IMG/VR virus record: IMGVR_UViG_3300042401_002002
DNA length: 17,740 nt
Direction: 5' to 3' (one strand)
Origin: a virus
Lineage: Duplodnaviria > Heunggongvirae > Uroviricota > Caudoviricetes
Within the stretch, counting starts at the first letter, position 1, and every line of letters starts with the position of its first letter. This document shows positions 320 to 15,861 of this stretch, piece after piece. The notes under the pieces were generated by a model, which saw only the letters and a program-made list of their open reading frames with translations, was not told where the DNA came from and did no database searches. Both the position numbers and the translations under genes were made by a program.

Positions 320-422
320 AAATATAAACCGTACAATGTTTGATTATATTGTACGGTTCAATAAACAATGTTAATCGAACATTGTTAAAAATAATTTGAA
401 AATAATAACAATGTTTTGTAAC
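320..422 (+). repeat. Twin-hairpin direct repeat, copy A
   Basis: About 100-nt near-identical copy at 2289-2394; stems 327-358 and 364-386. Confidence 0.9.
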
Positions 423-454
423 CTTATCAAAGTAATTTCGTTAAAGATAGAGTA
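417..454 (+). promoter_or_regulatory. Repeated promoter-like motif
   Basis: TGTAACCTT...TTTCGTTAAAGATAGAGTA upstream of ORF 515. Confidence 0.7.
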
Positions 455-484
455 TTAAGTTAAACAAACAAATCTAAACCTTTT

Positions 485-503
485 CTGTTACTAGGTTAAA
501 CAG
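485..503 (+). promoter_or_regulatory. 5'-leader hairpin (CTGTT/AACAG)
   Basis: TTTT-CTGTT-actaggtta-AACAG, ends 11 nt before ATG 515. Confidence 0.55.
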
Positions 504-514
504 TTTTAAAGTAT

Positions 515-697
515 ATGATTAAAGCATTAGTAAGTATCGTATTATTAGCACAATTAGTTTGTTTAGGTACTATGTTTTCTTCATGTACAATGAATGAAAC
601 ACACTATGGTAGTTCAACCCATAGTTACTACAAAAAAGACTTAAAAAAGGTTGTTTTGAGTAGTAACGTAAATAAATGTTCAAAAATTAGTAGATAA
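515..697 (+). CDS. Small putative lipoprotein
   Basis: Basic N-terminus, hydrophobic stretch, FSS-C24 lipobox-like motif. Confidence 0.6.
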   Translation: MIKALVSIVLLAQLVCLGTMFSSCTMNETHYGSSTHSYYKKDLKKVVLSSNVNKCSKISR

Positions 698-699
698 AA

Positions 700-738
700 C
701 AAAACTTTATTTGTAAGTTTGCGTTAAAGATAAAGTAT
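700..738 (+). promoter_or_regulatory. Repeated promoter-like motif (contains TAnnTTTG)
   Basis: CAAAACTTT...TAAGTTTGCGTTAAAGATAAAGTA. Confidence 0.65.
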
Positions 739-766
739 TCAATTAAACAATTAAATTATTAAGATT

Positions 767-1135
767 ATGGCAACTCGTAGCAGAATAGCATTTGAAGAAA
801 ATAATGAGATAAAATCAATTTATTGTCATTGGGACGGTTATTTGTCAAACAATGGTAAAATATTATTTGAAAACTATACAACACTTGACAAAGTTAAAGA
901 GTTAATTAGTTTAGGAGAGTTAAGTTCTTTAAAAGAAACAATCGAAGAAACTAAAGAAAATAGTTATCATATTAAACAAAATGAAAATATTAACATTGTT
1001 ACAAGTTCAGATGTAAAAGAATATTCAAAAGTATTTGAAGAGTATAATTATCTATTTAAAGACAATGTTTGGTATTTGGTTAATGATAATTTATCATTGG
1101 TTGCATTGAGTGAATATAGAAACTCCTCAAGATAG
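767..1135 (+). CDS. Conserved phage hypothetical protein (MATR..SIYCHWDGY), paralog of 7799
   Basis: AAGATT-ATG start; MATRS and H-x-DGY motifs shared with ORF 7799. Confidence 0.85.
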   Translation: MATRSRIAFEENNEIKSIYCHWDGYLSNNGKILFENYTTLDKVKELISLGELSSLKETIEETKENSYHIKQNENINIVTSSDVKEYSKVFEEYNYLFKDNVWYLVNDNLSLVALSEYRNSSR

Positions 1136-1170
1136 TAAAAGTACAATGTTTAAAAATAATAACAATGTTT

Positions 1171-1208
1171 TGAAACATTGTTTATAAAATTAACGTATAA
1201 GAAGTATA
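1171..1208 (+). promoter_or_regulatory. Repeated promoter-like motif
   Basis: TGAAACATT...TAACGTATAAGAAGTATA. Confidence 0.75.
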
Positions 1209-1219
1209 ACTAAACTTTT

Positions 1220-1235
1220 CAGTTGTTAGTAACTG
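1220..1235 (+). promoter_or_regulatory. 5'-leader hairpin, covariant copy (CAGTT/AACTG)
   Basis: TTTT-CAGTTG-ttag-TAACTG, ends 11 nt before ATG 1247. Confidence 0.6.
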
Positions 1236-1246
1236 TATTAAAGATT

Positions 1247-1477
1247 ATGACCACAGAAGAAAAAAATCAAGCATTAAATAATGCTTTAAGAAGTTTTGGA
1301 TATAGACAAGATTTATTTATCCATACAGTTGGTAAGGACTTATTTATTATTGCCAGTAAAAATGAAGTAGGTGGATTAAATACGTTTGGTTTGGCTTATA
1401 ACTACAAAGAAATGAATTTATTTCTTAAAGCTTATAATATAGGTTTTAATAACAATACATCACTAAAATTAATTTAA
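1247..1477 (+). CDS. Hypothetical protein (76 aa)
   Basis: Start moved from TTG 1223 to the in-frame AAGATT-ATG at 1247. Confidence 0.8.
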   Translation: MTTEEKNQALNNALRSFGYRQDLFIHTVGKDLFIIASKNEVGGLNTFGLAYNYKEMNLFLKAYNIGFNNNTSLKLI

Positions 1478-1491
1478 AAACAATTAACACA

Positions 1492-1632
1492 ATGTTACAG
1501 ATATTTATCAAATCAACAAACATTTTACCATTAAAAGAAATTGTTTGTCAAGTGTTAAAATCACAACCAAAATGTTCAAGCTATAACAATGCTATTAACA
1601 TTAATAGTAAACAAAATATTAACCGTAGATAA
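1492..1632 (+). CDS. Possible 46-aa hypothetical protein
   Basis: ATG-to-TAA ORF filling the gap between ORFs 1247 and 1641. Confidence 0.35.
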   Translation: MLQIFIKSTNILPLKEIVCQVLKSQPKCSSYNNAININSKQNINRR

Positions 1633-1640
1633 CCAAGATT

Positions 1641-2099
1641 ATGGAAACGACAATTTTAAAAAGAATATCGCCACAAAAATTAGCAGTAATGTTCCATGAC
1701 CATGCTGATAAAATCAATATTAGGTATTTCAATGCTTTGACTAAAGAAGAAATAAACGAACATAATGACCACAATGTTTTTACTTTTGAAGTTAAGGTAA
1801 GGCACAATGAAAATGAAAACCCTAATAAGCTTTTCAACAATGTTTTAAAAATAATCAATCAACCAAAAAGAAACATTGTTAAAACCAATAACAACAATGT
1901 TTTTAAACAAACTTCATTGTGTAAACAGGAAAGAATTAGTTTAGTTTCATTGCGTACTGATTTAATTAAAAAGATAGGTACAAATGATTTAAATGTTATT
2001 GATAGTTACATTATACCATTGTATAACGAACAAAGTAATTCAGTTTATTTTGTTGATGAAACAAGTTATTCAAGTGATGAAAGAGCTATTATTCTGTAA
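1641..2099 (+). CDS. Hypothetical protein
   Basis: AAGATT-ATG start, 152 aa; contains three AACAWTGTT sites. Confidence 0.75.
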   Translation: METTILKRISPQKLAVMFHDHADKINIRYFNALTKEEINEHNDHNVFTFEVKVRHNENENPNKLFNNVLKIINQPKRNIVKTNNNNVFKQTSLCKQERISLVSLRTDLIKKIGTNDLNVIDSYIIPLYNEQSNSVYFVDETSYSSDERAIIL

Positions 2100-2127
2100 C
2101 AACAATGTTAAAATAATAACAATGTTT

Positions 2128-2165
2128 TGCAACAATGTTTGTAATATTAACGTATAAGAAGTATA
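2128..2165 (+). promoter_or_regulatory. Repeated promoter-like motif
   Basis: TGCAACAAT...TAACGTATAAGAAGTATA. Confidence 0.75.
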
Positions 2166-2196
2166 AATAATTCAACCACAAACCAAATAAAGTAAA

Positions 2197-2289
2197 ATGA
2201 ATAAGTATAACAATATCCAGGATTTTGATGATTTGCCACATGGTAAAATAAAAGTAACTAAACCTAAAGTAAAGAAGTTTAAAGGTTAA
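2197..2289 (+). CDS. 30-aa peptide with basic tail (MNKYNNIQDFDDLPHGKIKVTKPKVKKFKG)
   Basis: Only ORF between motif 2128 and the twin hairpin at 2289; below the track's size cutoff. Confidence 0.6.
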   Translation: MNKYNNIQDFDDLPHGKIKVTKPKVKKFKG

Positions 2290-2394
2290 AATATAAACTT
2301 AACAATGTTTGATTATGTTGTTAAGTTCAAGAAACAATGTTAGTCGAACATTGTTTAAAAAAATAATTTGAAAATAATAACATTCTTTTGAAAC
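2289..2394 (+). repeat. Twin-hairpin direct repeat, copy B
   Basis: Matches 320-422; stems 2296-2327 and 2332-2356. Confidence 0.9.
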
Positions 2395-2462
2395 ATTGTT
2401 TGTGTTTACAAGGTACTATTAGTAGAAAAACTAAGGACTTTGTTTTAGAAAAATGTTAATAT

Positions 2463-2540
2463 ATGAATATTATTTATTATGTTGGAATACAAATATTGAT
2501 TGGTGTTTATTGTGGTAAAAAGTTAAGTGAAATAGTTTAA
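2463..2540 (+). CDS. 25-aa hydrophobic peptide (MNIIYYVGIQILIGVYCGKKLSEIV)
   Basis: ATG-to-TAA ORF directly upstream of ORF 2557. Confidence 0.45.
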   Translation: MNIIYYVGIQILIGVYCGKKLSEIV

Positions 2541-2556
2541 GTTAATTAAAGTAAAT

Positions 2557-2742
2557 ATGGAGTTAAAAGATTTAAGAAAATTGTACAAAGGTTTAATGGA
2601 ATACATTGATAGTTCAGAAGAGAACTTTAATAAACCTTTAAAAACAAATATAACTGATTATTTGGGTTTAAAGTTTGGTAATAATGATGCAGAACGTGAA
2701 GAAATTTTTACGAACTACATTATTGGTAGATTAGCTAGATAA
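2557..2742 (+). CDS. Hypothetical protein
   Basis: ORF track, 61 aa. Confidence 0.75.
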   Translation: MELKDLRKLYKGLMEYIDSSEENFNKPLKTNITDYLGLKFGNNDAEREEIFTNYIIGRLAR

Positions 2743-2996
2743 ATCCGTAGAAATAACAATGTTTTTGATTTTATTAAAATTTAAACAATGTTATTTTTTT
2801 GCATTTTAACATTGTTTTATAATGCAACAATGTTATTATACAATGTTTCAGAATTAACAATATGTTAATAATGTACCATTAAATACATATTATACTGATT
2901 ACTAAGGTATTAAAAAGTACAATAAATGTATGTTAAATTTAGTAAAAAATTCTTACATTTTATATGTTATATTTTAACAAAAAATACTAGTTTTAT

Positions 2997-3034
2997 AACA
3001 ACTTTATTACTACATTTGCGTTAAAGAATGTATA
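2997..3034 (+). promoter_or_regulatory. Repeated promoter-like motif (contains TAnnTTTG)
   Basis: ACAACTTT...TACATTTGCGTTAAAGAATGTATA. Confidence 0.65.
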
Positions 3035-3059
3035 ACTAAAAACAAGATATAAATACTAT

Positions 3060-3985
3060 ATGAAAACAGAATTTAATTTAAGATTATTAGAACAGTTTAG
3101 TTCAGCAAATTTACATACTAAAATTAGTTTACTTGAAATTTCCACAATAGATAATATGTCTATTGGTATGGAATGGGTAAAAAATAATGTTGAAGCAGTA
3201 TTGGTTGGTGGTACGGCAGTTGTTAATTATTTATCAAAAGGTAGAGATTTAACACCCGATGTTGATTATTTAGTAAGTAATATTAATGATGTTAAAACTA
3301 AACTAACAAAAGATAATATTTTAGACCCAAACGTAGGTAATAAAAGTCTAAATTCTTTGATTTTAAAATCAAAGATACAAACTGTTATAGGTGGGGTTTC
3401 AGTTGATATTATTAGACCATTACATATTCTATTTAAAATATGTATCCAATGGACTTTAACCTCCATTGAGCCTACGGCTACGGCTCATATTGTGTACTTA
3501 AATTCCACAACTACATTTTAACACTCATTACAACTATCTATTTGATTCAACAAGCATAGCTTGTTGTCTTGTTAGTGTAATTTGTCTAAAACACTCAATG
3601 ATTTTACGTTTACGAGAGCAAAAACCTTTAGGTTTTTGATTTGTAAACAACCTAATATCAATATGTCAAAGATTCAACAACCTTTTGTTATTGAAGCAAC
3701 GTAAAAAAACTATGGTGGGTCTTAGCTTACGTTACATTTTAATTTAAATAGTGTAAAATTAAATAAATTTCATTAAATTTAAACAAAATTAATGATTGTA
3801 TTTAACCCGAATTACTTGCGATACTTAAATTAGATTTAGGTAGAACTAAAGATATTGACGATGGCTTTGCTTTATTGCAAAGTGACAAGGTTAATAAGAA
3901 AAATTATATTACCTTTGTTGAAGGTTTAAAGAAATTTCTTAATGATTACGAATCATTAATAAGTTACCAAGATTTAATTCAATAA
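3060..3985 (+). pseudogene. Pol-beta-superfamily nucleotidyltransferase interrupted by a 389-nt insertion
   Basis: N-part has VLVGGTAVVNY...R.LTPDVDYLV (GG + DxD). C-part 3806-3985 reads PELLAILKLDLGRTKDIDDG. Removing 3417-3805 restores one 178-aa frame (..VSVDIIRPELLAILK..). Confidence 0.8.
3417..3805 (-). mobile_element. Putative non-autonomous IS607/IS200-IS605-type remnant
   Basis: Disrupts the NTase. ACC (GGT on - strand) occurs at both junctions. Minus-strand fragments LKCSCG (3521-3504) and AVGSMEVKVH (3478-3449) resemble a TnpB C-terminus. Several hairpins. Confidence 0.5.
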
Positions 3986-3987
3986 CT

Positions 3988-4176
3988 ATGGAAAATTATA
4001 ATATATACATTTATTTGTTCAATGTAGTAACAAACCTAATTATACTAGGTTTTAGTTTAAGTTGTTATTTAAGGTGGAAAACAAAAAATTGGTTGTTTTT
4101 TATCTTAGCTAACATATTCTTAATTACTTATTTTAGTATAAAAATATACCAAGTAACGCAACCTTTATTAAAGTAA
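3988..4176 (+). CDS. Small membrane protein (two hydrophobic segments)
   Basis: 62 aa with two long hydrophobic stretches separated by RWKTKNW. Confidence 0.7.
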   Translation: MENYNIYIYLFNVVTNLIILGFSLSCYLRWKTKNWLFFILANIFLITYFSIKIYQVTQPLLK

Positions 4177-4199
4177 TAACGTATATAACCAAAAGTATA
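4157..4199 (+). promoter_or_regulatory. Repeated promoter-like motif
   Basis: CGCAACCTTT...TAACGTATA..AAGTATA; overlaps the end of ORF 3988. Confidence 0.7.
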
Positions 4200-4204
4200 A
4201 TATT

Positions 4205-4657
4205 ATGCAAACAATCAAAAATTATTTTGTTTCTTCATTGACTAATAAAGGAATAAACGAAGTAGAAGCAAACAACTTAGTTGAACAAGCTAAAACAGAT
4301 ATTGAGATATATTTGAATAGTTCAATGGATAAACAATTTTCATTATCCAAAAATGAAATTAAAGATGTTAGAACTATATTAAGAAATATTGCAGTTCTAA
4401 ACCTTAGAAAATCAATTAGAGAAAAACCATTTGCAAATTTAAAAAGCAAAGAAGTAACCAACGTACTTAAAGGTTTAAATATAACAGTTAACAGAAAATA
4501 CAGTAAAAAAAGTGTTTCTATGTTAAAGATATTTGGCGAAAGACATAATGTATTAAATAACAAGTTAGGTTTGCCACATAAACATATTATGTTTTATAGC
4601 AAATCAAATGTTTATATTGCTAAACATAAAAAATTAGGTTTTAAATTTCTTGACTAA
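4205..4657 (+). CDS. Hypothetical basic protein
   Basis: ORF track, 150 aa, downstream of a motif copy. Confidence 0.8.
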   Translation: MQTIKNYFVSSLTNKGINEVEANNLVEQAKTDIEIYLNSSMDKQFSLSKNEIKDVRTILRNIAVLNLRKSIREKPFANLKSKEVTNVLKGLNITVNRKYSKKSVSMLKIFGERHNVLNNKLGLPHKHIMFYSKSNVYIAKHKKLGFKFLD

Positions 4658-4660
4658 TAA

Positions 4661-4696
4661 CGCAACCTTATTCAGAATAACAACGTATAAGATGTA
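4661..4696 (+). promoter_or_regulatory. Repeated promoter-like motif
   Basis: CGCAACCTTA...CAACGTATAAGATGTA. Confidence 0.75.
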
Positions 4697-4722
4697 AGTT
4701 TAAACATATAAATATTAAGAGT

Positions 4723-4908
4723 ATGGAACTAAAAGAAATGATTTATAATAATGTAAAAGTTACATTATTAATTCAATACAAAGATAATTACAATGTACAA
4801 GAAGATGTTACATACAAATATTTTCTTAACGGTTTCGAGGTTAAAGACTTAACAACAATTAAACCAATTCATTTAGAAATCTTTGAGTTACTAAAGAAAT
4901 ATAACTAA
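4723..4908 (+). CDS. Hypothetical protein
   Basis: ORF track, 61 aa. Confidence 0.75.
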   Translation: MELKEMIYNNVKVTLLIQYKDNYNVQEDVTYKYFLNGFEVKDLTTIKPIHLEIFELLKKYN

Positions 4909-4911
4909 GTT

Positions 4912-4980
4912 ATGACTTACTTATTAATAACAATATTATTTTGTTGGTTGTTATTTGAAATTATAACTAACAAACATTGA
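4912..4980 (+). CDS. 22-aa hydrophobic peptide (MTYLLITILFCWLLFEIITNKH)
   Basis: ATG 3 nt after the previous stop; TGA directly precedes a terminator hairpin. Confidence 0.55.
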   Translation: MTYLLITILFCWLLFEIITNKH

Positions 4981-4984
4981 TAAC

Positions 4985-5021
4985 AAAACCTTAATTATTG
5001 ACTTAATTAAGGTTTTATTTT
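4985..5021 (+). terminator. Intrinsic terminator-like hairpin
   Basis: AAAACCTTAATTA-ttgact-TAATTAAGGTTTT perfect 13-bp stem followed by ATTTT. Confidence 0.7.
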
Positions 5022-5040
5022 AAAAATAAATTAAGTTTAA

Positions 5041-5078
5041 TGCAACCTTTTATATTTTACCAACGTATAAGAAGTATA
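5041..5078 (+). promoter_or_regulatory. Repeated promoter-like motif
   Basis: TGCAACCTTT...CCAACGTATAAGAAGTATA. Confidence 0.8.
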
Positions 5079-5095
5079 TTTAAACAACCAAGATT

Positions 5096-5266
5096 ATGTT
5101 AAAGAAACAAGAAGAACTTAAGGAATTAATCCGAGATAGTTATTATGAAGGTGCAAAATCCTTTAGAAAACATTGTAAAGATAAACCAAATGAATGGTCT
5201 TATATAATGGACGATGCAGTTGATTATTCAAATGAAATTGTTGACAAACTAAAAGAAAATGACTGA
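5096..5266 (+). CDS. 56-aa hypothetical protein (MLKKQEELKELIRDSYYEG...)
   Basis: AAGATT-ATG start; overlaps ORF 5259 by 8 nt; missed by the track. Confidence 0.8.
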   Translation: MLKKQEELKELIRDSYYEGAKSFRKHCKDKPNEWSYIMDDAVDYSNEIVDKLKEND

Positions 5267-5477
5267 CAAAGAGTTTTATTTACATAAACATTATGGGATT
5301 GATGTAACTAAAGAAGTTGTTTCTAAGCCAAAGGAAACCAACAAAGTATATATGTTGGTTCATAACCAAACTAAACAAATCTTAATAAAAGGTTTATATA
5401 GTTTGTGTAAATGGAAGTACAACCAACTTAATACATTTGAACGCAAAAGTTATTCAATAAAACAGTATAAAAATTAA
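5259..5477 (+). CDS. Hypothetical protein
   Basis: ORF track, 72 aa, translationally coupled to ORF 5096. Confidence 0.8.
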   Translation: MTDKEFYLHKHYGIDVTKEVVSKPKETNKVYMLVHNQTKQILIKGLYSLCKWKYNQLNTFERKSYSIKQYKN

Positions 5478-5569
5478 TAATGGGAAATTTATCGTTTCTA
5501 ATACCAACTGAAAATATTAATACATGAAGGTATTCACCCCGAATATGATAAATTTAATTAAGAATGTTG

Positions 5570-5603
5570 TGTAACATTTATTCAAAATTAACGTATAAGA
5601 ACT
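5570..5603 (+). promoter_or_regulatory. Repeated promoter-like motif
   Basis: TGTAACATTT...TAACGTATAAGAACT. Confidence 0.75.
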
Positions 5604-5615
5604 AAAAACAAGTAT

Positions 5616-5951
5616 ATGAAAAACCAAGATTTAATTTTAGATTGCCCTATTGAATTTATAGAAAATTCTTTAGAAATTGCTTTAAATCGTTTTGAAGGTA
5701 ATAGTAATAAAATACCTAAACATAGTGATTTAATTAATGTTTACTTTGCAGGTGCTACATTATGTTTAGATGTTTACATTAATTGTAAAACAGATAAAGA
5801 TGTTATTACTATTAGTTATAACAAACAAACATTTGGTTATTTTAGTGGTGGTTATCGTAGGTTATTATCTATCAAAGCCTTAAAAACTTTAGATAAATTA
5901 ATTAAAGTAGCTAAAATTAATCACGAACAAATTAGTTGGTTAAAACTGTAA
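5616..5951 (+). CDS. Hypothetical protein
   Basis: ORF track, 111 aa; its stop TAA lies inside the next motif's GTAACC. Confidence 0.8.
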   Translation: MKNQDLILDCPIEFIENSLEIALNRFEGNSNKIPKHSDLINVYFAGATLCLDVYINCKTDKDVITISYNKQTFGYFSGGYRRLLSIKALKTLDKLIKVAKINHEQISWLKL

Positions 5952-5984
5952 CCTTTATTATTAAACCAACGTATAAATAGTATA
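5947..5984 (+). promoter_or_regulatory. Repeated promoter-like motif
   Basis: TGTAACCTTT...CCAACGTATAAATAGTATA. Confidence 0.8.
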
Positions 5985-5990
5985 TCTATT

Positions 5991-6221
5991 ATGGAAACAA
6001 CTTACAGAGAATGGCTTCAAAATAATGAAGAAGCTAAAGAATTAATTATTAACGAACATTATAATTTAATACCTAAATCAGCATTAGAGTATATTGATAA
6101 GTTACAGGAACGTAGTGATAAATTAGAAAACGATAATAAAGATTTACTTAAAACTGTTTCTATATTACGTGGATACCTTACTGAATTACAAGAAGAAATT
6201 AAAGTCCTTAAAAATAAGTAA
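5991..6221 (+). CDS. Hypothetical coiled-coil protein
   Basis: 76 aa with heptad-like L/I pattern in the C-terminal half. Confidence 0.8.
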   Translation: METTYREWLQNNEEAKELIINEHYNLIPKSALEYIDKLQERSDKLENDNKDLLKTVSILRGYLTELQEEIKVLKNK

Positions 6222-6225
6222 TACC

Positions 6226-6534
6226 ATGTCTATTCCAATTAACTCAAACATTGATTATAATAAATTGATTAATCAATTAGATTCTATTTCACTTAACAAA
6301 CTTAATACCAATATGAATACAATTCCAATGGCAGACCCAAGAGATTCATTTAACTATGAAGAATTTGAAAAAGAAATGTTGAATAATACAAATTCTTTTT
6401 TCAACAAAAGACAACCAAGTTATAATAAGTCTATCCACAAACCAACTAACCCAATTGATGTTTTAACTAGGAAATTAGAACGTGAGAGAAAACGTGCTAT
6501 TACTAGGGAACAGTATGGAGTTAATATTTATTAA
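6226..6534 (+). CDS. Hypothetical Asn-rich protein (102 aa)
   Basis: Start moved to the in-frame ATG 6226, 4 nt after the upstream stop. Confidence 0.7.
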   Translation: MSIPINSNIDYNKLINQLDSISLNKLNTNMNTIPMADPRDSFNYEEFEKEMLNNTNSFFNKRQPSYNKSIHKPTNPIDVLTRKLERERKRAITREQYGVNIY

Positions 6535-6536
6535 TT

Positions 6537-6737
6537 ATGAATAAACTAAGAGATTACTTTGTAAGATTATTAATTGATTTTTGTTGTGGAAAAGCATTGA
6601 AGTACCAACAAAGAACTGATTTGTTACATAATACAAAAGGTACTAACTATATTTATAGTATAGGTAGTAATGTTGTTCAACGTGATAAGTGGTTGAAAAG
6701 AATTTATTTGTTAGAAAAATTCATAGGTAAAGCTTAA
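6537..6737 (+). CDS. Hypothetical protein
   Basis: ORF track, 66 aa. Confidence 0.75.
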   Translation: MNKLRDYFVRLLIDFCCGKALKYQQRTDLLHNTKGTNYIYSIGSNVVQRDKWLKRIYLLEKFIGKA

Positions 6738-6741
6738 TAAC

Positions 6742-6882
6742 ATGATGCAGATAGATAAAAGGTTTAAAGAAGAGAAACTAAGAATATTTAAATGTAATGT
6801 TTCTATTAAAGAATTTACTAAACTTGAAAATGTTGAAAAACGATTTATATATGTAGATAATCTACATATATTCAGTAAATAA
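6742..6882 (+). CDS. 46-aa hypothetical protein (MMQIDKRFKEEKLRIF...)
   Basis: Fills the gap between ORF 6537 and the terminator at 6897. Confidence 0.6.
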   Translation: MMQIDKRFKEEKLRIFKCNVSIKEFTKLENVEKRFIYVDNLHIFSK

Positions 6883-6896
6883 CCAACTAACAATAT

Positions 6897-6936
6897 AAAA
6901 AACTTTCTTATTAATTTAGGAAAGTTTTTTTGTTTT
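6897..6936 (+). terminator. Intrinsic terminator
   Basis: AAAAAACTTTCTTA-ttaatt-TAGGAAAGTTTTTT followed by TGTTTT. Confidence 0.75.
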
Positions 6937-6949
6937 ATTGGCACATAAG

Positions 6950-6986
6950 TGTAACCTTTATGTTTTATCAGCGTATAAGTAGTATA
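6950..6986 (+). promoter_or_regulatory. Repeated promoter-like motif
   Basis: TGTAACCTTT...CAGCGTATAAGTAGTATA. Confidence 0.8.
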
Positions 6987-7002
6987 TTTAAACAACAAGA
7001 TT

Positions 7003-7350
7003 ATGGAAAACCAAACTAGAGTAATAAAGTTAAAAGAACTAAATTGTCAAGCCAAAAGTATGTTGGCTAGTGAATTTAATAAACTATTAGATGAGTGGGA
7101 TAGACAAAATTATATTAATTACAGGGAATTGTTATCGGAAAGTTATAGACACGTTTTAGATTATTATAATTTATCCGTATTCTTTCCACAACAAAAAATT
7201 TGGCAAAAACGTTTAAAAGATTCAGAAAAAGAGTTTAATAAACTTCTTAAACAACAAAATAAGATTTTAGTTAAACTAACTAAAATCAACAAACAAAGAA
7301 GGTTATTAAGAATTACTAAACCTAACAAACAACTTAAAATTAATTTCTAA
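7003..7350 (+). CDS. Hypothetical protein
   Basis: AAGATT-ATG start, 115 aa. Confidence 0.8.
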   Translation: MENQTRVIKLKELNCQAKSMLASEFNKLLDEWDRQNYINYRELLSESYRHVLDYYNLSVFFPQQKIWQKRLKDSEKEFNKLLKQQNKILVKLTKINKQRRLLRITKPNKQLKINF

Positions 7351-7354
7351 AATT

Positions 7355-7501
7355 ATGCCAAGAGAACCCTTGCCCTTAAAAAGAGAATACAAAGCTGATG
7401 TTACTATTAACATTGCAGATATTTTCAGAAACCCCGATATACAAAACGAGGTAATAAAAGAATGTAAAAAATTAAAAACTAATCGAACTAAAAGACTATG
7501 A
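7355..7501 (+). CDS. 48-aa hypothetical protein (MPREPLPLKREYKADV...)
   Basis: Starts 4 nt after the upstream stop; ATGA overlap with ORF 7498. Confidence 0.7.
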   Translation: MPREPLPLKREYKADVTINIADIFRNPDIQNEVIKECKKLKTNRTKRL

Positions 7502-7758
7502 AAACAGTAGAACAAAAAAGACTTGAAACAATTCAAAGTAAAATTGATAAACAAGTAAAAATCTTAACAGAACTTAAAAGTAAATCACTAACTAAGTTCT
7601 TAAGTCATAATGATATTGTTAAAATTAACAATAAATTTCAAGCTAGGTTATTGAATTACTTAGAAGAAGAAAAAAGAAATGTTAATTATTTGCAAGAACC
7701 AAATAAATTTAATAATATTGAAGAAAATATTAGATTTGTTGAAACCTTTGTAGATTAA
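7498..7758 (+). CDS. Hypothetical protein
   Basis: ORF track, 86 aa. Confidence 0.8.
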   Translation: MKTVEQKRLETIQSKIDKQVKILTELKSKSLTKFLSHNDIVKINNKFQARLLNYLEEEKRNVNYLQEPNKFNNIEENIRFVETFVD

Positions 7759-7777
7759 GTACGTAAAAGACTATATA
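7741..7777 (+). promoter_or_regulatory. Repeated promoter-like motif
   Basis: GAAACCTTT...GTACGTAAAAGACTATATA; overlaps the end of ORF 7498. Confidence 0.7.
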
Positions 7778-7798
7778 ACAATTAAACAAATTAAGATT

Positions 7799-8305
7799 AT
7801 GGCAACTAGAGCAACAATAAGTATTGAATTAGAAAACAAAAGCATTTTAACCGTTTTTTTATCACAAGATGGTTATCCTATGAATGATAGTAAAGATTTT
7901 GGTTGTGGTTTAACTTTATTAAAACATTATAATAAAGTAGATTTAGTGAATGAATTAATTTCACATGGAAATATTTATTCATTACAAGAAAAAATTGAAA
8001 AAGACCCAACAAAACCACATCGAATTGAATTAGAAAAAAGACAAAGAGATGTTTGTTTTTTCTTTAATAGAGATTATAAACAAGAAAATATTGAACCTAT
8101 AATTTTCTTTTCTGAAAAAGATTACAAAAAACGTAATGAAATGCAAGATTGGAATTATTTGTTTAAAAATAATGAATGGTATGTTTACTTAACTAAGTAT
8201 GATACTAATAACATAAAATATAAAAATAAGTTTGTTAAACTTAAAGAATTTATTGAAAATTCTGTAAAATATGTTGGTATAAATGAAACTGAAAACGTTT
8301 ATTAA
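7799..8305 (+). CDS. Conserved phage hypothetical protein (MATR..DGYP), paralog of 767
   Basis: MATRA, DGYP, ELISHGNIYSL and WNYLFKNNEWY align with ORF 767. Confidence 0.85.
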   Translation: MATRATISIELENKSILTVFLSQDGYPMNDSKDFGCGLTLLKHYNKVDLVNELISHGNIYSLQEKIEKDPTKPHRIELEKRQRDVCFFFNRDYKQENIEPIIFFSEKDYKKRNEMQDWNYLFKNNEWYVYLTKYDTNNIKYKNKFVKLKEFIENSVKYVGINETENVY

Positions 8306-8321
8306 ACGTATAAGAACTATA
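8284..8321 (+). promoter_or_regulatory. Repeated promoter-like motif
   Basis: TGAAACTG...TAAACGTATAAGAACTATA; overlaps the end of ORF 7799. Confidence 0.7.
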
Positions 8322-8338
8322 AATTAAAACTTAAGATT

Positions 8339-8485
8339 ATGGAAAATAAAATTAAAAAAGTATTAATTTGCAATAACTGTAAAGATATTTGGATAGCACC
8401 AATTAATAAATGTAAGTGTGGTTGTACTACGTTAACAGAAACGCATCTAAGTAATATAAATCTTGCACAAAATTTTAATAAATAA
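8339..8485 (+). CDS. 48-aa Cys-rich putative zinc-ribbon protein
   Basis: AAGATT-ATG start; CNNC...CKCGC; missed by the track. Confidence 0.75.
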   Translation: MENKIKKVLICNNCKDIWIAPINKCKCGCTTLTETHLSNINLAQNFNK

Positions 8486-8487
8486 TT

Positions 8488-8679
8488 ATGGAATACAACC
8501 AACAAATAACACATTGGTTAAGCAACTATGTTGAATTAGCTAACAAATTTAATGAAGAAGGAAACAAGGAACTTGCAGAATATTGGAAGGGTCAAGTATT
8601 TGGTACAGTCAAAACTGCTGAATTAATACTAGGCAAGGAAAATGTTGATTTTTCTTGGTATTTAAGACAATTGCCTTAA
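8488..8679 (+). CDS. Hypothetical protein
   Basis: ORF track, 63 aa. Confidence 0.8.
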   Translation: MEYNQQITHWLSNYVELANKFNEEGNKELAEYWKGQVFGTVKTAELILGKENVDFSWYLRQLP

Positions 8680-8689
8680 AATAAAAAAC

Positions 8690-8743
8690 CGAAAACAAAC
8701 AAAATATTTATCTAAATATTGAAACTTATTTTGTTTGTTTTCG
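8690..8743. repeat. 16-17 bp inverted repeat
   Basis: CGAAAACAAACAAAAT (8690-8705) / ATTTTGTTTGTTTTCG (8728-8743). Confidence 0.85.
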
Positions 8744-8758
8744 TTAAACAACATATAA
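8720..8758 (+). promoter_or_regulatory. Repeated promoter-like motif (variant)
   Basis: TGAAACTTA...TTTCGTTAAACAACATATA; 21-nt G-to-CG register. Confidence 0.55.
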
Positions 8759-8772
8759 AGCAAAACATAAAA

Positions 8773-9042
8773 ATGAAAAGAAAATATATAAACAATCCGA
8801 ATAGTAAAATAAAACCTTTTATTATTAACCCAGTAAAACAATCAATGATTAATAACGAAACAGTTATATTCAGCGAAACATTTGAAGATGCAATAAAAAC
8901 TTATGCAGAACAAAGAAACAAAACATTTACAGAAACTTGGTTTGATATTCAAGACAAACCTAGAAATGCTAATTTAAATAATAGCTTTCAAATAAGAAAT
9001 AGGCACGATGTAAAAGTGTTTGCTTTGTTGGACTTAAAATAA
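8773..9042 (+). CDS. Hypothetical protein (89 aa)
   Basis: Start moved from TTG 8719 to the in-frame ATG 8773 downstream of the motif. Confidence 0.75.
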   Translation: MKRKYINNPNSKIKPFIINPVKQSMINNETVIFSETFEDAIKTYAEQRNKTFTETWFDIQDKPRNANLNNSFQIRNRHDVKVFALLDLK

Positions 9043-9064
9043 ATTAAAAATATTTGCTTAAGTT

Positions 9065-9101
9065 TGTAACCTTATCAAATAATCAACGTATAATAACTAT
9101 A
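9065..9101 (+). promoter_or_regulatory. Repeated promoter-like motif
   Basis: TGTAACCTTATCAAATAATCAACGTATAATAACTATA. Confidence 0.8.
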
Positions 9102-9120
9102 AATTAACTAATAAACTTTT

Positions 9121-9136
9121 CTGTTGAATGTAACAG
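9121..9136 (+). promoter_or_regulatory. 5'-leader hairpin
   Basis: TTTT-CTGTTG-aatg-TAACAG, ends 12 nt before ATG 9149. Confidence 0.6.
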
Positions 9137-9148
9137 TACTCAAAGATT

Positions 9149-9607
9149 ATGGAAAAAATAGAAAAAAGAATTATCGGTTTTCACACAGGTAGAGGTGGTC
9201 GATTTTATAACGGTGGTCATACAGTTTGTATTGGGGAAACCAACATAAATAATTTTACCAATGATTTATTTGATAGATATGAAAATGAATTTGAATTACG
9301 TAAGTTAATTGGTAAAAGAAATAACCTAAATAATTTAGCTGATGAAAATATTGAACTACTAGCAGGAAAATTAAATTTTAATTTAGGTAAAAAAGTATGG
9401 TTTGATTGTAACAGTAACCCAGTTGGTTTAGATGTTAATAATGAAGGTATTGGCACTATTGATAATGACGGAATTTATGATACATTATCTTGTAAATACT
9501 TAGAAGACCTTTCGGATACTGAACTTAAATTAATATTAGAATTTCAAGGTTACATTGATAGTGAAATTATTAATTTTTGTAAAGAAAAATTAGAAATATT
9601 TGCTTAA
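9149..9607 (+). CDS. Phage hypothetical protein (FHTGRGGRFYNGGH motif)
   Basis: AAGATT-ATG start, 152 aa, Gly/Arg-rich N-terminal motif. Confidence 0.85.
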   Translation: MEKIEKRIIGFHTGRGGRFYNGGHTVCIGETNINNFTNDLFDRYENEFELRKLIGKRNNLNNLADENIELLAGKLNFNLGKKVWFDCNSNPVGLDVNNEGIGTIDNDGIYDTLSCKYLEDLSDTELKLILEFQGYIDSEIINFCKEKLEIFA

Positions 9608-9610
9608 GTT

Positions 9611-9647
9611 TGTAACCTTATTAAAGAACCAACGTATAAGAAGTATA
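9611..9647 (+). promoter_or_regulatory. Repeated promoter-like motif
   Basis: TGTAACCTTA...CCAACGTATAAGAAGTATA. Confidence 0.8.
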
Positions 9648-9666
9648 TCTAAACAATAAAAAGAAT

Positions 9667-9906
9667 ATGTTCAATTTATTCAAGAAGAAAAGAAACAAGC
9701 AAACTATATGGATAGCTTGTGATAACGACAATAATTATTATCTATTTGATAATAAACCAATAAAAGTTTATAAATCATGGGTTTGTACAGAAGGTACAAT
9801 GTTGTATATTAGTTCAACTATTTACATGATGTTAGTTAAACAATTCGATTTACCTATAATAACAAGTAGTAGTGAACCAATTGAAATTATTATTAAACAA
9901 ATCTAA
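9667..9906 (+). CDS. Phage hypothetical protein
   Basis: ORF track, 79 aa (WIACDNDNNYYLFDNKP). Confidence 0.8.
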   Translation: MFNLFKKKRNKQTIWIACDNDNNYYLFDNKPIKVYKSWVCTEGTMLYISSTIYMMLVKQFDLPIITSSSEPIEIIIKQI

Positions 9907-9908
9907 TT

Positions 9909-10190
9909 ATGCCTTACCCAAATTATACCTCCGAAATTTACCCTATCTTAGTTAATCTAACAGATAGTGAATTATTAATGATTAGTAATGATTCAATTAT
10001 TAGTGATAAAACGTTTACTAACATTGTAGGTTATCAAACATTGTATAACAACATTGTTAATTATCAAACCTCAAAAGGTTTTAGAACTGATACATATATT
10101 ATTAAATCAATGATTGGTAATTGTATTATTCATTATTGTGGCATGAAGTACTTAAATAATATAGCTAAAGAAGTTTTTGATAAAATTTAA
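9909..10190 (+). CDS. Hypothetical protein
   Basis: ORF track, 93 aa. Confidence 0.75.
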   Translation: MPYPNYTSEIYPILVNLTDSELLMISNDSIISDKTFTNIVGYQTLYNNIVNYQTSKGFRTDTYIIKSMIGNCIIHYCGMKYLNNIAKEVFDKI

Positions 10191-10199
10191 TATTACAAC

Positions 10200-10427
10200 A
10201 TGATAGTTACTGAACTAACAAATTCTCAATTGGTTTTCTTATCTAAAGAAATTAGTACAATGTCTAATTTAGATAAACCTAGTGAACATAAACGTAGTTT
10301 TTTATTGAATGAAATTTGGAAATTTTATAAGTTAATAAATTTCCATGATACATTTATCTCAATAAAACATACGGTAAAAGCAGAAATAATTCACAGAATT
10401 AATACAGATAAAATGAAACTTATTTAG
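10200..10427 (+). CDS. Hypothetical protein
   Basis: ORF track, 75 aa. Confidence 0.75.
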   Translation: MIVTELTNSQLVFLSKEISTMSNLDKPSEHKRSFLLNEIWKFYKLINFHDTFISIKHTVKAEIIHRINTDKMKLI

Positions 10428-10450
10428 TTTCTTAACGTAAAAGTAGTATA
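10414..10450 (+). promoter_or_regulatory. Repeated promoter-like motif
   Basis: TGAAACTTA...TAACGTAAAAGTAGTATA; overlaps the end of ORF 10200. Confidence 0.75.
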
Positions 10451-10468
10451 TTTAAACGACCAAAGATT

Positions 10469-10765
10469 ATGTCTTATATTTCAAAATTATTCATTAAGTC
10501 TTTAACATCAAAAGACAAAACTAAGCAAGAAAAAGTTGCTAATTTATTTGCAGTTAATCAAAATTGTGAATTTACACAAACAATTGCAATCAACAAACAA
10601 CCAAAGGATAAAAAATTTCCTGTACATTTATTTACGGTTACAATCTTTCAAAACAACATTAGTTTGTTGAAAACCAACGATGCAACTGAAAAAGAATATA
10701 ATGATATTTTGTTAGCTATTAAAACAAAATTTCCAAAAAATAATGTTATGTTTGTTAAGAATTAA
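10469..10765 (+). CDS. Hypothetical protein
   Basis: AAGATT-ATG start, 98 aa. Confidence 0.8.
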   Translation: MSYISKLFIKSLTSKDKTKQEKVANLFAVNQNCEFTQTIAINKQPKDKKFPVHLFTVTIFQNNISLLKTNDATEKEYNDILLAIKTKFPKNNVMFVKN

Positions 10766-10769
10766 AACC

Positions 10770-10958
10770 ATGACAGGAAGACGTTTATACCGTGAATTTG
10801 CTCAAAGTAAAGGCAAAGAAGCAAAAGAATTTGTATGTATCAAAGAAGAAATGTATAATATTGATACTCTAATCACTAAAGATAATAAAGGTAATGAAGA
10901 ACATACGACAATAAATTACAAAGAATTAGTTCATTGGATAATTAAAAATATTTTGTAA
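10770..10958 (+). CDS. Hypothetical protein (62 aa)
   Basis: Start moved to the in-frame ATG 10770; stop lies inside the next motif's GTAACC. Confidence 0.75.
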   Translation: MTGRRLYREFAQSKGKEAKEFVCIKEEMYNIDTLITKDNKGNEEHTTINYKELVHWIIKNIL

Positions 10959-10989
10959 CCTTATCAAATAACCAACGTATAAACCTATA
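10954..10989 (+). promoter_or_regulatory. Repeated promoter-like motif
   Basis: TGTAACCTTATCAAATAACCAACGTATAAACCTATA. Confidence 0.8.
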
Positions 10990-11005
10990 TAAACAAATAA
11001 AGATT

Positions 11006-11353
11006 ATGAAAATTTACATAATAACATTTATTAATGAGTTTGGTAATAAAACTACAATTTTTTCTAAAGGCTTTACAAAAGAAGAAGCTAAATTGAGGTT
11101 TATTGACGACTATGAATTACCCGAAAAAGTTAAAATAACTAAATGTATTTTAGCTAAAGATGGAGATTATGGTACTTTATCAGAAATGCCAAACCCATAC
11201 ATATTTAAGTTATTTAGTATATTGAAAAGAAATAATTGGATTGAACCAACTAAAAAAGAATTTCCTTCATATAGAGATAAAAATCCAAGTAAAAAGGTTT
11301 GGTTTGAAGATATTCATTTTATTTGGAGAAATTATGATATAAATTCTTTGTAA
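11006..11353 (+). CDS. Hypothetical protein
   Basis: AAGATT-ATG start, 115 aa. Confidence 0.8.
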   Translation: MKIYIITFINEFGNKTTIFSKGFTKEEAKLRFIDDYELPEKVKITKCILAKDGDYGTLSEMPNPYIFKLFSILKRNNWIEPTKKEFPSYRDKNPSKKVWFEDIHFIWRNYDINSL

Positions 11354-11356
11354 TTT

Positions 11357-11393
11357 TGCAACCTTATCAAATAACCAACGTATAAGTAGTATA
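11357..11393 (+). promoter_or_regulatory. Repeated promoter-like motif
   Basis: TGCAACCTTATCAAATAACCAACGTATAAGTAGTATA; 26 nt identical to the copy at 10954. Confidence 0.8.
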
Positions 11394-11413
11394 ATTAAAA
11401 ACTTAATCCTTTT

Positions 11414-11433
11414 CTGTTAACTAGGACAAACAG
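11414..11433 (+). promoter_or_regulatory. 5'-leader hairpin
   Basis: TTTT-CTGTT-aactaggaca-AACAG, ends 11 nt before ATG 11445. Confidence 0.55.
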
Positions 11434-11444
11434 TAATTAAAATT

Positions 11445-11921
11445 ATGTCAAACTACTGTGTTAATTACCTACAAATTATTGGAAATGATTCTAACGAAAT
11501 AGAAAGATTCCAAAACCTTATTACTAATAACAATGATAAAACCAATAATGGTTTATTGTTAGAAACAAAAACAACTAGTGAAGTTATCTTTGATGTTTAT
11601 ATCAATGATGACAATAGAATTGATTTCTTAACAAAATACACAACTAACATAGATATGTTCAAAGAATTGTCTGAATTATTTCCTACATTAACTATTAAGT
11701 TAGAATACATGGAACTAGGTTATGATGTTTTTGGTAAGGCTACATTTGAAAATGGTACTGTTAAACATAAACAATTAAGTGAAAGTGATTTTGAATTGAT
11801 TACAGAATGTTGCGATAGTGATGTTGATATTGAAACATACAAATATAAAGACTTTGAAAGCGAAAGTAGAGAAGAAGTTATAGAATATTTGTTTGAAGAC
11901 TTGTATAACGAATTTGTTTAA
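11445..11921 (+). CDS. DUF1281/YubB ferredoxin-like domain protein
   Basis: MSNYCVNYLQIIG N-terminus and LSELFPTLTIKLEYMELGYDVFG match my recollection of this family's pattern. Confidence 0.65.
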   Translation: MSNYCVNYLQIIGNDSNEIERFQNLITNNNDKTNNGLLLETKTTSEVIFDVYINDDNRIDFLTKYTTNIDMFKELSELFPTLTIKLEYMELGYDVFGKATFENGTVKHKQLSESDFELITECCDSDVDIETYKYKDFESESREEVIEYLFEDLYNEFV

Positions 11922-11942
11922 TTATTAAAATATAAGATTATC

Positions 11943-12404
11943 ATGTTAACCTTAGAAAAACCAAAACAGTTACTTTATTTGTGTTCAATTAAAGGTAAAG
12001 AAAACATTATCAGTAAGTTAAAACAAGATAATACTAGAATTAGTAACTATGTTTTAAAATCTTTAGAATGTCAATCAATTTTAGAAGATAGTTGTACATT
12101 AATAACCAACAAAGAATTATTAAAAGATTTGTTTAGTTATGTTATTGATGTTGCTCAAACAGCTAATGGTAAAATATATGATGCTGAAAATATTCATAGT
12201 TTTACTAAAAACGTACAACATAGTAATTTTGTTATCAATCAAATGAAACAAAATAAAGGTTTGTTTTATTATAACAAACTAAATGATGTTTATATTTATT
12301 TCTTACCAACTAGTTATTATTCACAAATAACACAAATGTTGGTTTGTACTAAAGATTTAGAAGATTACAAAGCGATTAATAACGATTTAAGCTTGTTGTT
12401 CTAA
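11943..12404 (+). CDS. Hypothetical protein, C-terminus INNDLSLLF
   Basis: ORF track, 153 aa. Confidence 0.8.
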   Translation: MLTLEKPKQLLYLCSIKGKENIISKLKQDNTRISNYVLKSLECQSILEDSCTLITNKELLKDLFSYVIDVAQTANGKIYDAENIHSFTKNVQHSNFVINQMKQNKGLFYYNKLNDVYIYFLPTSYYSQITQMLVCTKDLEDYKAINNDLSLLF

Positions 12405-12489
12405 TTAATACAAATGAAAACAATATTTATATTGTTGATTATATAGATAAAATTAAGTAACTTTAGACTATTTAAGTTTAAACAACTAA

Positions 12490-12717
12490 ATGGAAACTAA
12501 CTTAATCTTTAAAGAAAATATCACTAATAACAATATTTTAACTAAACTCAATAAAAAAACACAAGCTATTCTAGTAATAGATAATGACAGTTTTATTGAG
12601 TTTCTATCCAACGGAACTTTTTTTGTTCCAACTAATGAAAATGTAGGTATCAATTGCACCAACATTAAAGATGCAATTTATGAGATTGAACGAACTAAAA
12701 ATAAATTATTGGTTTAA
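12490..12717 (+). CDS. Hypothetical protein
   Basis: ORF track, 75 aa. Confidence 0.75.
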   Translation: METNLIFKENITNNNILTKLNKKTQAILVIDNDSFIEFLSNGTFFVPTNENVGINCTNIKDAIYEIERTKNKLLV

Positions 12718-12755
12718 TGCAACCTTTTATAAGGTTTACACGTTAAAGATGTATA
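12718..12755 (+). promoter_or_regulatory. Repeated promoter-like motif
   Basis: TGCAACCTTTTATAAGGTTTACACGTTAAAGATGTATA. Confidence 0.8.
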
Positions 12756-12776
12756 ACAATTAAACAAATTAAGATT

Positions 12777-13196
12777 ATGTCAACAGGAAGAAAAAGATTA
12801 AATGATGCGTTAAAGAAAGGTGAATTTTTTAACGCATTTAAAAATATAACGTATGATTATGATTCAAAATATATTCATATTATTGATAAAAATAAATTAA
12901 ATTTACTTTATGAATATGTTATAATTAATGCTGAAATATTAAATGGTAAAATGGATAGTATTGTAACGTATGGAACAGGTGCAACACATGAACAAAATAT
13001 TATTGATAAAGAAATAAATAATTTATTCATTGAAACAGTTAAAAAAGGAAAATGTTTATTCTTTTTAATGCCAAATAATGAATATATTGGTTTAGTACCT
13101 TTAGAAGAAAAATCTGAACTTCTTCAACCTAGTTTTACAGTTGAAGACTTTGAAAAATTTCAAGAAATTAATAAAGATTTAAGTTTATTATATTAA
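12777..13196 (+). CDS. Hypothetical protein, C-terminus INKDLSLLY
   Basis: AAGATT-ATG start, 139 aa. Confidence 0.8.
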   Translation: MSTGRKRLNDALKKGEFFNAFKNITYDYDSKYIHIIDKNKLNLLYEYVIINAEILNGKMDSIVTYGTGATHEQNIIDKEINNLFIETVKKGKCLFFLMPNNEYIGLVPLEEKSELLQPSFTVEDFEKFQEINKDLSLLY

Positions 13197-13201
13197 AAAT
13201 T

Positions 13202-13456
13202 ATGTTAACCGATAAGATTTTAAAACAAGCTAAAGTAATTAAGCAAAAAGAAAAATGTCCTTTTGTTCTTATTATAAAAGAAAAAATTGTGCCTTTATAT
13301 AATATGGAACAAAAACATTTTGTTGAACAAAATTTCATTAAAAGACAAAACTTAAGGTTGTTTGTATCTTTGTTAAATCATGTTTTAAAAACAAAAGAAA
13401 CTGATTATCAAAAACTTAAACAACTTTATGTTGAACAAGTAGAAATAATTGACTAA
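13202..13456 (+). CDS. Hypothetical protein
   Basis: ORF track, 84 aa. Confidence 0.75.
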   Translation: MLTDKILKQAKVIKQKEKCPFVLIIKEKIVPLYNMEQKHFVEQNFIKRQNLRLFVSLLNHVLKTKETDYQKLKQLYVEQVEIID

Positions 13457-13460
13457 TAAG

Positions 13461-13498
13461 TGTAACATTTTATAAGGTTTTCACGTTAAAGAATATAT
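13461..13498 (+). promoter_or_regulatory. Repeated promoter-like motif (last copy in window)
   Basis: TGTAACATTTTATAAGGTTTTCACGTTAAAGAATATAT. Confidence 0.75.
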
Positions 13499-13841: not shown

Positions 13842-13845
13842 GTCT

Positions 13846-14118: not shown

Positions 14119-14152
14119 AAGTTATAGTTTATCTTTAAAACTGATTATAAGT

Positions 14153-14848: not shown

Positions 14849-14881
14849 ATTAATTAGTAAGTTTGTTAAAAATATAATATT

Positions 14882-15109: not shown

Positions 15110-15121
15110 TTTGTAAATGTT

Positions 15122-15466: not shown

Positions 15467-15467
15467 T

Positions 15468-15527: not shown

Positions 15528-15625
15528 ACAATGTTAGAGAGAAGACAACATTGTTTGTGAACAATGTTCAGTTAAGTAAAGAAAGCTGTAAGAAGGTGTG
15601 TTAAAATAGAAAATTAAATAAGTCA

Positions 15626-15850: not shown

Positions 15851-15861
15851 AAAATAATATT

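Follow-up and report, generated by a model that had tools for sequence, protein, structure and literature searches.

The 17,740-nt stretch of DNA analysed here (the window; IMG/VR virus record IMGVR_UViG_3300042401_002002, Caudoviricetes) carries 21 copies of a bipartite repeat, each placed in front of small genes. It is likely that these repeats are promoters of the extracytoplasmic function (ECF) type, served by group 4 of the sigma-70 family, and that they are read by a phage-encoded ECF-like sigma factor acting on the host core RNA polymerase. This reading is carried by the motif and its statistics, by its position before genes, by an orientation rule kept throughout, and by a link to sigma genes in related phages. 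The window is the final 17.7 kb of a 43,265-bp metagenome contig (JGI 3300042484 Ga0453661_0000224, also JBFDKP010002870.1; 24% G+C), positions on which are given below as record positions. We rejected the idea of a complete 43-kb phage because the contig has no structural or packaging genes; the element is a fragment of a large phage, probably of ~330 kb. The papers searched gave no description of these arrays.

Motif copies and layout of the array

All 21 copies of the motif listed by a first-pass annotation of the window are present, all on the plus strand, where 0.7 would be expected by chance. Each of its positions was correct, the listed coordinate being the G of TGNAAC, with the T one base earlier. 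Within the window, the loose pattern [GA][TCA]AAC-N15-17-CGT[AT][TA]A has 22 plus-strand and 2 minus-strand matches; shuffles under a first-order Markov model give an expectation of 0.7 per strand. The extra plus-strand site, at 7188, is not a copy, as it is intragenic and falls below the weight-matrix threshold. The consensus is T-G-N-A-A-C-(C)TT, 16-17 nt, CGT(A/T)(T/A)AAG. When the copies are aligned on CGT, information peaks in T-G-N-A-A-C-(C)-T-T and (A)ACGT(A/T)(T/A)AAG, followed by a weaker (A)AGTATA. CGT, the block of highest information, occurs in 21 of 21 window copies, as expected of an ECF -10 box. AAC is likewise found in all 21, with a preceding G in 18 of them and TG in 16, as expected of an ECF -35 box. 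Twelve copies have 16 nt between AAC and CGT and the other nine have 17, both within the ECF range, and the previously reported distance of 21 or 22 nt between the G and the C of CGT holds in every copy.

The copies are placed consistently with respect to genes. An ATG does follow each one, as had been claimed, at a distance of 21-76 nt from the C of CGT in all 21 copies. The start of the first box ranges from 636 nt after the preceding stop codon to 21 nt before it, in the last codons of the upstream gene, and in seven copies it lies no more than 5 nt past the upstream stop. Each copy was said to head one to five small genes; copies 1-20 head 1-4 open reading frames (ORFs), whereas copy 21 (13462) heads nine ORFs and the TnpB gene. 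No copy with a matrix score ≥10 follows 13462, in agreement with the reported absence past 13.5 kb. The description of the repeat as promoter-like is thus upheld by the fixed 16/17-nt spacing, the constant position before an ATG, an orientation that follows the genes, and boxes equal to the ECF consensus.

How does the motif compare with known ECF promoters? Those of Bacillus subtilis SigW have a -35 element of tGAAACnTTTt and a -10 element of CGTA, and ECF spacers are 14-17 bp long (PMC5758882). In Flavobacterium psychrophilum, a promoter class with a CGT -10 box (‘SM6’) was mapped by 5'-end RNA-seq and assigned to ECF sigmas (PMC9723704). The repeat in the window has this layout, TGNAAC with Ts, a 16-17-nt spacer and CGT(A), and shares with SigW- and SM6-type promoters a close adherence to consensus. 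It differs from other ECF promoters in its ~46 copies within 30 kb of phage, one per 1-4 tiny genes, in a -10 box extended to CGTATAAG(A)AGTATA, and in the lack of a visible cognate sigma or anti-sigma gene on this contig.

The primary (sigma-A) promoter of Bacteroidota has the form TTTG / TAnnTTTG, in which TAnnTTTG is the -7 element, and the first-pass annotation rightly set the motif apart from it. At several copies (window 7731, 9059, 9605 and 11351), a TAnnTTTG box directly adjoins or runs into the TG of the ECF -35 box; these may be tandem promoters, or the boxes may arise incidentally from the T-richness of the flank. Sigma-70-type promoters show no enrichment in the window (125 found, 140 expected), and GC-rich terminators occur there at or below chance.

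Scanned with a weight matrix trained on the 21 window copies, the whole contig has 24 sites on each strand, where the null is 0.45 per strand. The plus-strand sites, save one, lie at record positions 24,921-38,987 (23 sites), and all minus-strand sites lie at 8,981-24,810. Every site on the contig is co-oriented with the small genes downstream of it. The array is a divergent one, with two arms and ~46 units, and its direction switches ~650 nt ahead of the window start. The motif had been reported as always on the plus strand. This is true within the window, but is an effect of the window boundary, because 24 more copies occupy the minus strand on the rest of the contig, to the left. The motif-model scan for strand and region bias that had been suggested, run here on the 43-kb contig, returns two strand-locked arms and nothing past window 13462. 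In the minus arm, 8 of the 24 copies read AGTATAAG and 2 read CGAATAAG instead of CGTATAAG (AGT or CGA for CGT), and these may form a second selectivity class.

Nearly all of the ~100 ORFs on the contig belong to no known family, the exceptions being an HNH endonuclease, TnpB, one DUF1281_C protein and a few PHROGs without assigned function. The HNH and TnpB genes are the only ones recognised in NCBIfam and PADLOC searches. The whole window has no megablast match among 50,697 phage records, a 231-residue window protein has no relatives in viral contigs, and Rfam and tRNA scans gave no match.

Sigma genes in phages that share the motif

Exact matching against IMG/VR, first of the -10 half alone and later of both boxes together, places the motif in at least 119 stretches. 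Many of the contigs involved carry dense arrays on one strand, such as 23 copies in 11.9 kb or 15 copies in 8.2 kb. Array-bearing contigs are mostly fragments that CheckV scales to ~330 kb, and two are complete, at 334 kb and 363 kb. Among seven contigs tested, six encode one or two sigma factors of 180-233 residues that consist of regions 2 and 4 only; the seventh, without a sigma, is a 14%-complete fragment.

The sigma gene is at the array or flanks it in all six array-bearing relatives examined. In G003, 24 co-directional copies occur in the 16 kb downstream of a sigma gene at 93.6 kb (plus strand), with a single copy in 20 kb on the other side. The corresponding counts are 26 and 0 for the sigma gene of G004 (52.8 kb, minus strand), and 34 and 2 for the two sigma genes of G006 (107.5 and 110.7 kb, plus strand). 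The same adjacency is seen in G001 and G005, and in G002 the array is divergent, with two arms, the minus arm containing the sigma gene. Two of the sigma genes have the motif directly in front of themselves, a further likeness to ECF promoters, and most sigma genes of the relatives have a TAnnTTTG box of the host sigma-A type further upstream. These two elements fit a cascade from host sigma to phage sigma.

The boxes also accompany related cellular genes. A search with an alignment of three sequences retrieved cellular homologues of the phage sigma, of which 80 were examined. G[TA]AAC-N16-CGT occurs within ~100 nt upstream of the gene in 40 of the 80, and on the opposite strand in 6 of the 80. 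Since ECF sigmas are usually self-regulating (PMC7826278), these self-flanked homologues indicate that the sigma clade reads such boxes.

One gene of the contig echoes the neighbourhood of the sigma genes. The 104-residue product of record 23,535-23,849 (minus strand), near the head of the minus arm, is a homologue of the gene beside the sigma in G001 and G006, and the same domain, free-standing in these three, sits within proteins of ~900-1,000 residues in G002 and G005. The domain is ~70 residues long (…FPY…Y.HVGQHS..DY…GY.L), has no Pfam family, and is represented by L017:862-1116 and L171:835-1149.

The relatives include a contig deposited under another name. L172 (JBAZIW010000001.1), a 362,763-bp contig deposited as a ‘Candidatus Paceibacterota’ metagenome-assembled genome, is the same as G005 in IMG/VR, where it is rated a complete phage. 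Neither rpoB nor rpoC is matched in it, and it is probably a mis-binned jumbo phage. Other 190-290-kb ‘Patescibacteria’ contigs among the sigma matches may also be mis-binned phages.

Candidate readers of the array

From these patterns we infer promoter activity, start sites, timing and the identity of the sigma in this phage. A small sigma would bind the -35 box TGNAAC(C)TT through its region 4, and through region 2 would bind and open the -10 box CGT(A/T)(T/A)AAG, 16-17 nt further on. Transcription is predicted to start a few bases downstream, within the AAGTATA stretch, and the resulting leaders would be short, without a Shine-Dalgarno sequence, and often end in AAGATTATG. The 21 copies would each drive a short transcription unit of small accessory genes and, with the 24 mirror-image copies of the minus arm, would form one divergent regulon of ~46 promoters. 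The reader would be host core RNA polymerase with a phage-encoded ECF-like sigma, the gene for which would lie outside the 43-kb contig, and the array genes would then be a middle or delayed-early class.

Several findings weigh against a phage sigma as the reader. A profile of nine phage sigmas found no sigma in the 43-kb contig (best E = 0.07), Pfam found none, even when the ten largest proteins were scanned permissively, and two proteins from the heads of the arms led to no sigma in Atlas look-ups. With a sigma gene at or inside the array in six of six relatives, its absence beside this array is unexpected. Kinship with those relatives rests mostly on the promoter, because the contig and the relatives have only ~5 small proteins in common. 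The eight AGT and two CGA copies of the minus arm are left unexplained by a single sigma. The most likely reader in this phage is an ECF-like sigma of its own, with a gene in another part of a genome much larger than the contig.

The main alternative is that a host ECF sigma reads the promoters, with the accessory genes plugged into a host stress regulon that responds, for example, to envelope stress caused by infection. In its favour, the 43 kb around this array of ~46 promoters contain no sigma gene. Cellular ECF sigmas use the same boxes, to judge from the 40 of 80 self-promoters and the F. psychrophilum CGT class, and the motif is kept across array-bearing phages whose sigmas are only 30-47% identical to one another. 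Yet every sufficiently long array-bearing relative has its own ECF-like sigma at the array head, and a sigma gene could simply lie in the part of the genome that this fragment does not cover. We consider the host-sigma reading rather unlikely, and it is compatible with a phage sigma. A more specific version, which we doubt further, is that the phage keeps no array sigma of its own and has its ~46 cassettes wired into the host ECF stress regulon, with the 9-mer AACA(A/T)TGTT as a repressor-type layer and the AGT -10 boxes as a sub-class of different sigma selectivity. If this were true, the host response to infection would switch ~46 cassettes on.

The first-pass annotation had attributed the motif to a phage-specific RNA polymerase or sigma factor. 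The sigma half of that proposal has gained ground, in the form of an alternative, ECF-type sigma with genes in array-bearing relatives; the polymerase half has not, none having been found in five relatives. A promoter for a phage-encoded polymerase, whether single-subunit or a phiKZ/AR9-like multisubunit enzyme, would be consistent with a motif that is private to phages, highly conserved and unlike the host primary promoter. However, AAC and CGT boxes separated by 16/17 nt are the signature of sigma regions 4 and 2. Pfam beta, beta-prime and T7-type models match nothing in the five relatives, two of them complete, although strongly diverged polymerases of jumbo phages can go unrecognised by Pfam, and the T7-type model was run without a positive control. 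We give a phage polymerase very little credence.

Could the repeats instead be mainly recombination joints, PeSL-like (promoter early stem-loop) or integron-like, that shuffle cassettes and serve as promoters only secondarily? The units are direct repeats of 50-110 nt with 72-97% identity, and include spacer and leader sequence not needed by the sigma boxes. Near-identical leaders, such as ACAATTAAACAAATTAAGATTATG, precede unrelated genes, and both members of the paralogous pair 767-1135 and 7799-8305 have one of the units. Among phages with the promoter in common, gene content is almost entirely different, and homologues of two cassette genes stand behind host-type TAnnTTTG promoters in other phages. 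These comparisons show spread of the units by duplication or conversion, and the units could be substrates for homologous exchange. On the other hand, co-orientation with genes and a fixed distance to the ATG are needs of a promoter, not of a crossover site, and a stem-loop is found at only 3-5 of the 21 copies. We judge a primarily recombinational role improbable.

The integron-like array proposed earlier did not hold up. There is no integrase and no attC-like site or palindrome in the 43 kb, every cassette has its own promoter, and the motif is not palindromic. Recombinase families were absent from the ORFs scanned, those of the window and larger ones of the contig, and from precomputed Pfam matches of the called genes across the 43 kb. 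The three other assemblies of the region (L015, L016 and L002) are 100% identical to the window, hence provide no indel breakpoints. The PeSLs of T4-type phages, to which the repeats had also been likened, are sigma-70-like early promoters fused to terminator stem-loops (PMC2839356, PMC4122927). The repeats resemble these in that short conserved regulatory sequences precede small ORFans of a variable region and are of a length that would allow homologous exchange. Membership of the class is not supported, given boxes of ECF type, unenriched sigma-70-like sites and a stem-loop at few copies, and exchange at the repeats is only putative. A PeSL-like role as recombination joints is possible.

Phage-encoded sigma factors with private promoters include SPO1 gp28 and T4 gp55. 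As in such regulons, one conserved phage-specific promoter precedes many genes here, and the proposed combination of host core polymerase and alternative sigma would define a temporal class apart from sigma-A. The phage sigma phiEco32 gp36 has private promoters with a single AATGTA element near -11 (PMC12276001), whereas both boxes of the present motif are canonical ECF boxes. The sigmas of the relatives also differ from gp36 in being ordinary two-domain ECF proteins recognised by Pfam. As in a regulon of the phiEco32 type, the promoter is unlike the host primary promoter; the sigma is known from the relatives alone. The array is the known strategy of alternative sigma plus private promoter, used on a large scale, and does not amount to a new type of system.

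Three observations suggest a host among the Bacteroidota: only 1 of 46 leaders has a Shine-Dalgarno-like sequence, TAnnTTTG stands before the sigma genes of relatives, and the closest clearly cellular sigma homologues are from Bacteroidota, though the nearest homologues also include contigs labelled Patescibacteria. The array offers a testable transcription map for ~100 genes of unknown function in an uncultured giant lake phage, built from a single promoter class on two divergent arms of short units. It also lends weight to the view that ECF-type promoters drive accessory genes in a widespread group of ~330-kb aquatic phages. Promoter and sigma together would be a compact orthogonal pair, and candidate expression tools for Bacteroidota.

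Individual copies and other repeated elements

Window coordinates are used here, and all copies and hairpins are on the plus strand. Copy 1 (417-452) reads TGTAAC-N16-CGTTAAAG and heads ORF 515-697, and AACAATGTT sites overlap its upstream side. Copy 2 (700-735) has a weaker -35 box (AAAAC) and heads ORF 767-1135, a phrog_1987 paralogue. Copies 3 (1171-1207, TGAAAC-N17-CGTATAAG) and 4 (2128-2164, TGCAAC-N17-CGTATAAG) head three and two ORFs, and are overlain by three AACAWTGTT and three AACAATGTT sites, respectively. A decayed copy at ~2390 (2385-2430), inside a 109-nt repeat of 320-425, retains TGAAAC and has lost CGT (AAGGTACTATTAG). Single ORFs follow copies 5 (2997-3032; ORF 3060-3521), 6 (4157-4193; ORF 4205-4657) and 7 (4661-4697; ORF 4723-4908). 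Copy 8 (5041-5077), with the top matrix score, heads two ORFs; directly upstream is a terminator-like, AT-rich hairpin with a T-run (4985-5024, fold z = -3.2). Copy 9 (5570-5605) heads ORF 5616-5951, and copy 10 (5947-5983), which overlaps the stop codon of the upstream ORF, heads four ORFs.

A second terminator-like, AT-rich hairpin with a T-run (6897-6942, fold z = -3.0) lies upstream of copy 11 (6950-6985), which heads three ORFs. Copy 12 (7740-7775) is within the 3' end of ORF 7498-7758 and heads ORF 7799-8305, the other phrog_1987 paralogue, the 3' end of which is overlapped by copy 13 (8284-8320), itself at the head of two ORFs. At copy 14 (8720-8755), a 16-bp hairpin (8690-8743, fold z = -6.0) encloses the -35 box and spacer. 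Clear hairpins are thus found before copies 8 and 11 and around copy 14, plus one at 325-362 before copy 1; other folds are equal to those of shuffles. Copy 15 (9065-9100) heads ORF 9149-9607 and has a CTGTT...AACAG hairpin in its 5' leader. The 75-nt unit of copy 16 (9611-9646), which heads three ORFs, is 87% identical to that of copy 15. Copy 17 (10414-10449), which shares sequence with the 3' end of the preceding ORF, heads two ORFs, copy 18 (10954-10989) heads ORF 11006-11353, copy 19 (11357-11392) heads three ORFs, one of them the DUF1281_C protein, and copy 20 (12718-12754) heads two. The last, copy 21 (13461-13497), heads a unit at 13521-16757 with nine ORFs including the HNH endonuclease, followed by TnpB.

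The 9-mer AACA(A/T)TGTT is a second abundant repeat, with 35 occurrences in the window against ~1.2 expected and 39 on the contig against 3 expected. Of the 35, 19 fall in the intergenic 19% of the window. Twenty exact 9-mers lie in a first zone (330-2850), where they overlap copies 1, 3 and 4 and the decayed copy, and 14 lie in a second zone (14200-16500), in the promoter-free last unit; neither zone is assigned a strand. The 9-mers are placed like operator sites, with three over each of copies 3 and 4 and one abutting the -35 box of copy 1. They also occur at record 7.5-8.0 kb and 10.1-10.5 kb. The 9-mer appears specific to this phage, because it is not enriched in the relatives G001, G002 and G005.

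Four leaders (475-505, 1212-1235, 9113-9137 and 11405-11432) share (C)TTTTC(T/A)GTT...AAC(A/T)G, a 5-bp hairpin. In the leader of the copy at 1172, pairing is kept by a two-sided change (CAGTT/AACTG versus CTGTT/AACAG).

A 160-nt non-coding element at 3539-3699, in an ORF-free region (3522-3987), has a counterpart with 84% identity at record 3,802-3,961. The element shows several hairpins, stem-preserving indels and no Rfam match. The second copy, at the left end of the contig, adjoins a remnant of a TnpB 3'-end / guide-RNA region. The TnpB gene itself (16842-17740) is cut by the contig end; a 96%-identical variant on a 1.7-kb metagenome contig (L271), the sole yield of a metagenome search with the HNH protein, completes it to 433 residues. 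The RuvC D/E/D motifs look intact, and the zinc-finger cysteines are missing. RNA-guided transcription by TnpB and a sigma, of the type in PMC13472631, was considered and dropped, given the intact-looking D/E/D motifs and the lack of an adjacent sigma gene. Sequence downstream of TnpB recurs at record 51-145 and 3,657-3,783, indicating that both contig ends break in copies of this element.

The region at record ~7-10.5 kb varies when L046 is compared with L045. In a Lake Mendota-type sample, a block of four genes (153, 31, 81 and 37 residues) is inverted directly after a gene for a 188-residue protein, and three genes of the minus strand are absent. The block is flanked by inverted repeats of 435-477 nt (~76% identical), rich in ACATTGT / ACAATGT, and is a candidate invertible or rearranging segment.

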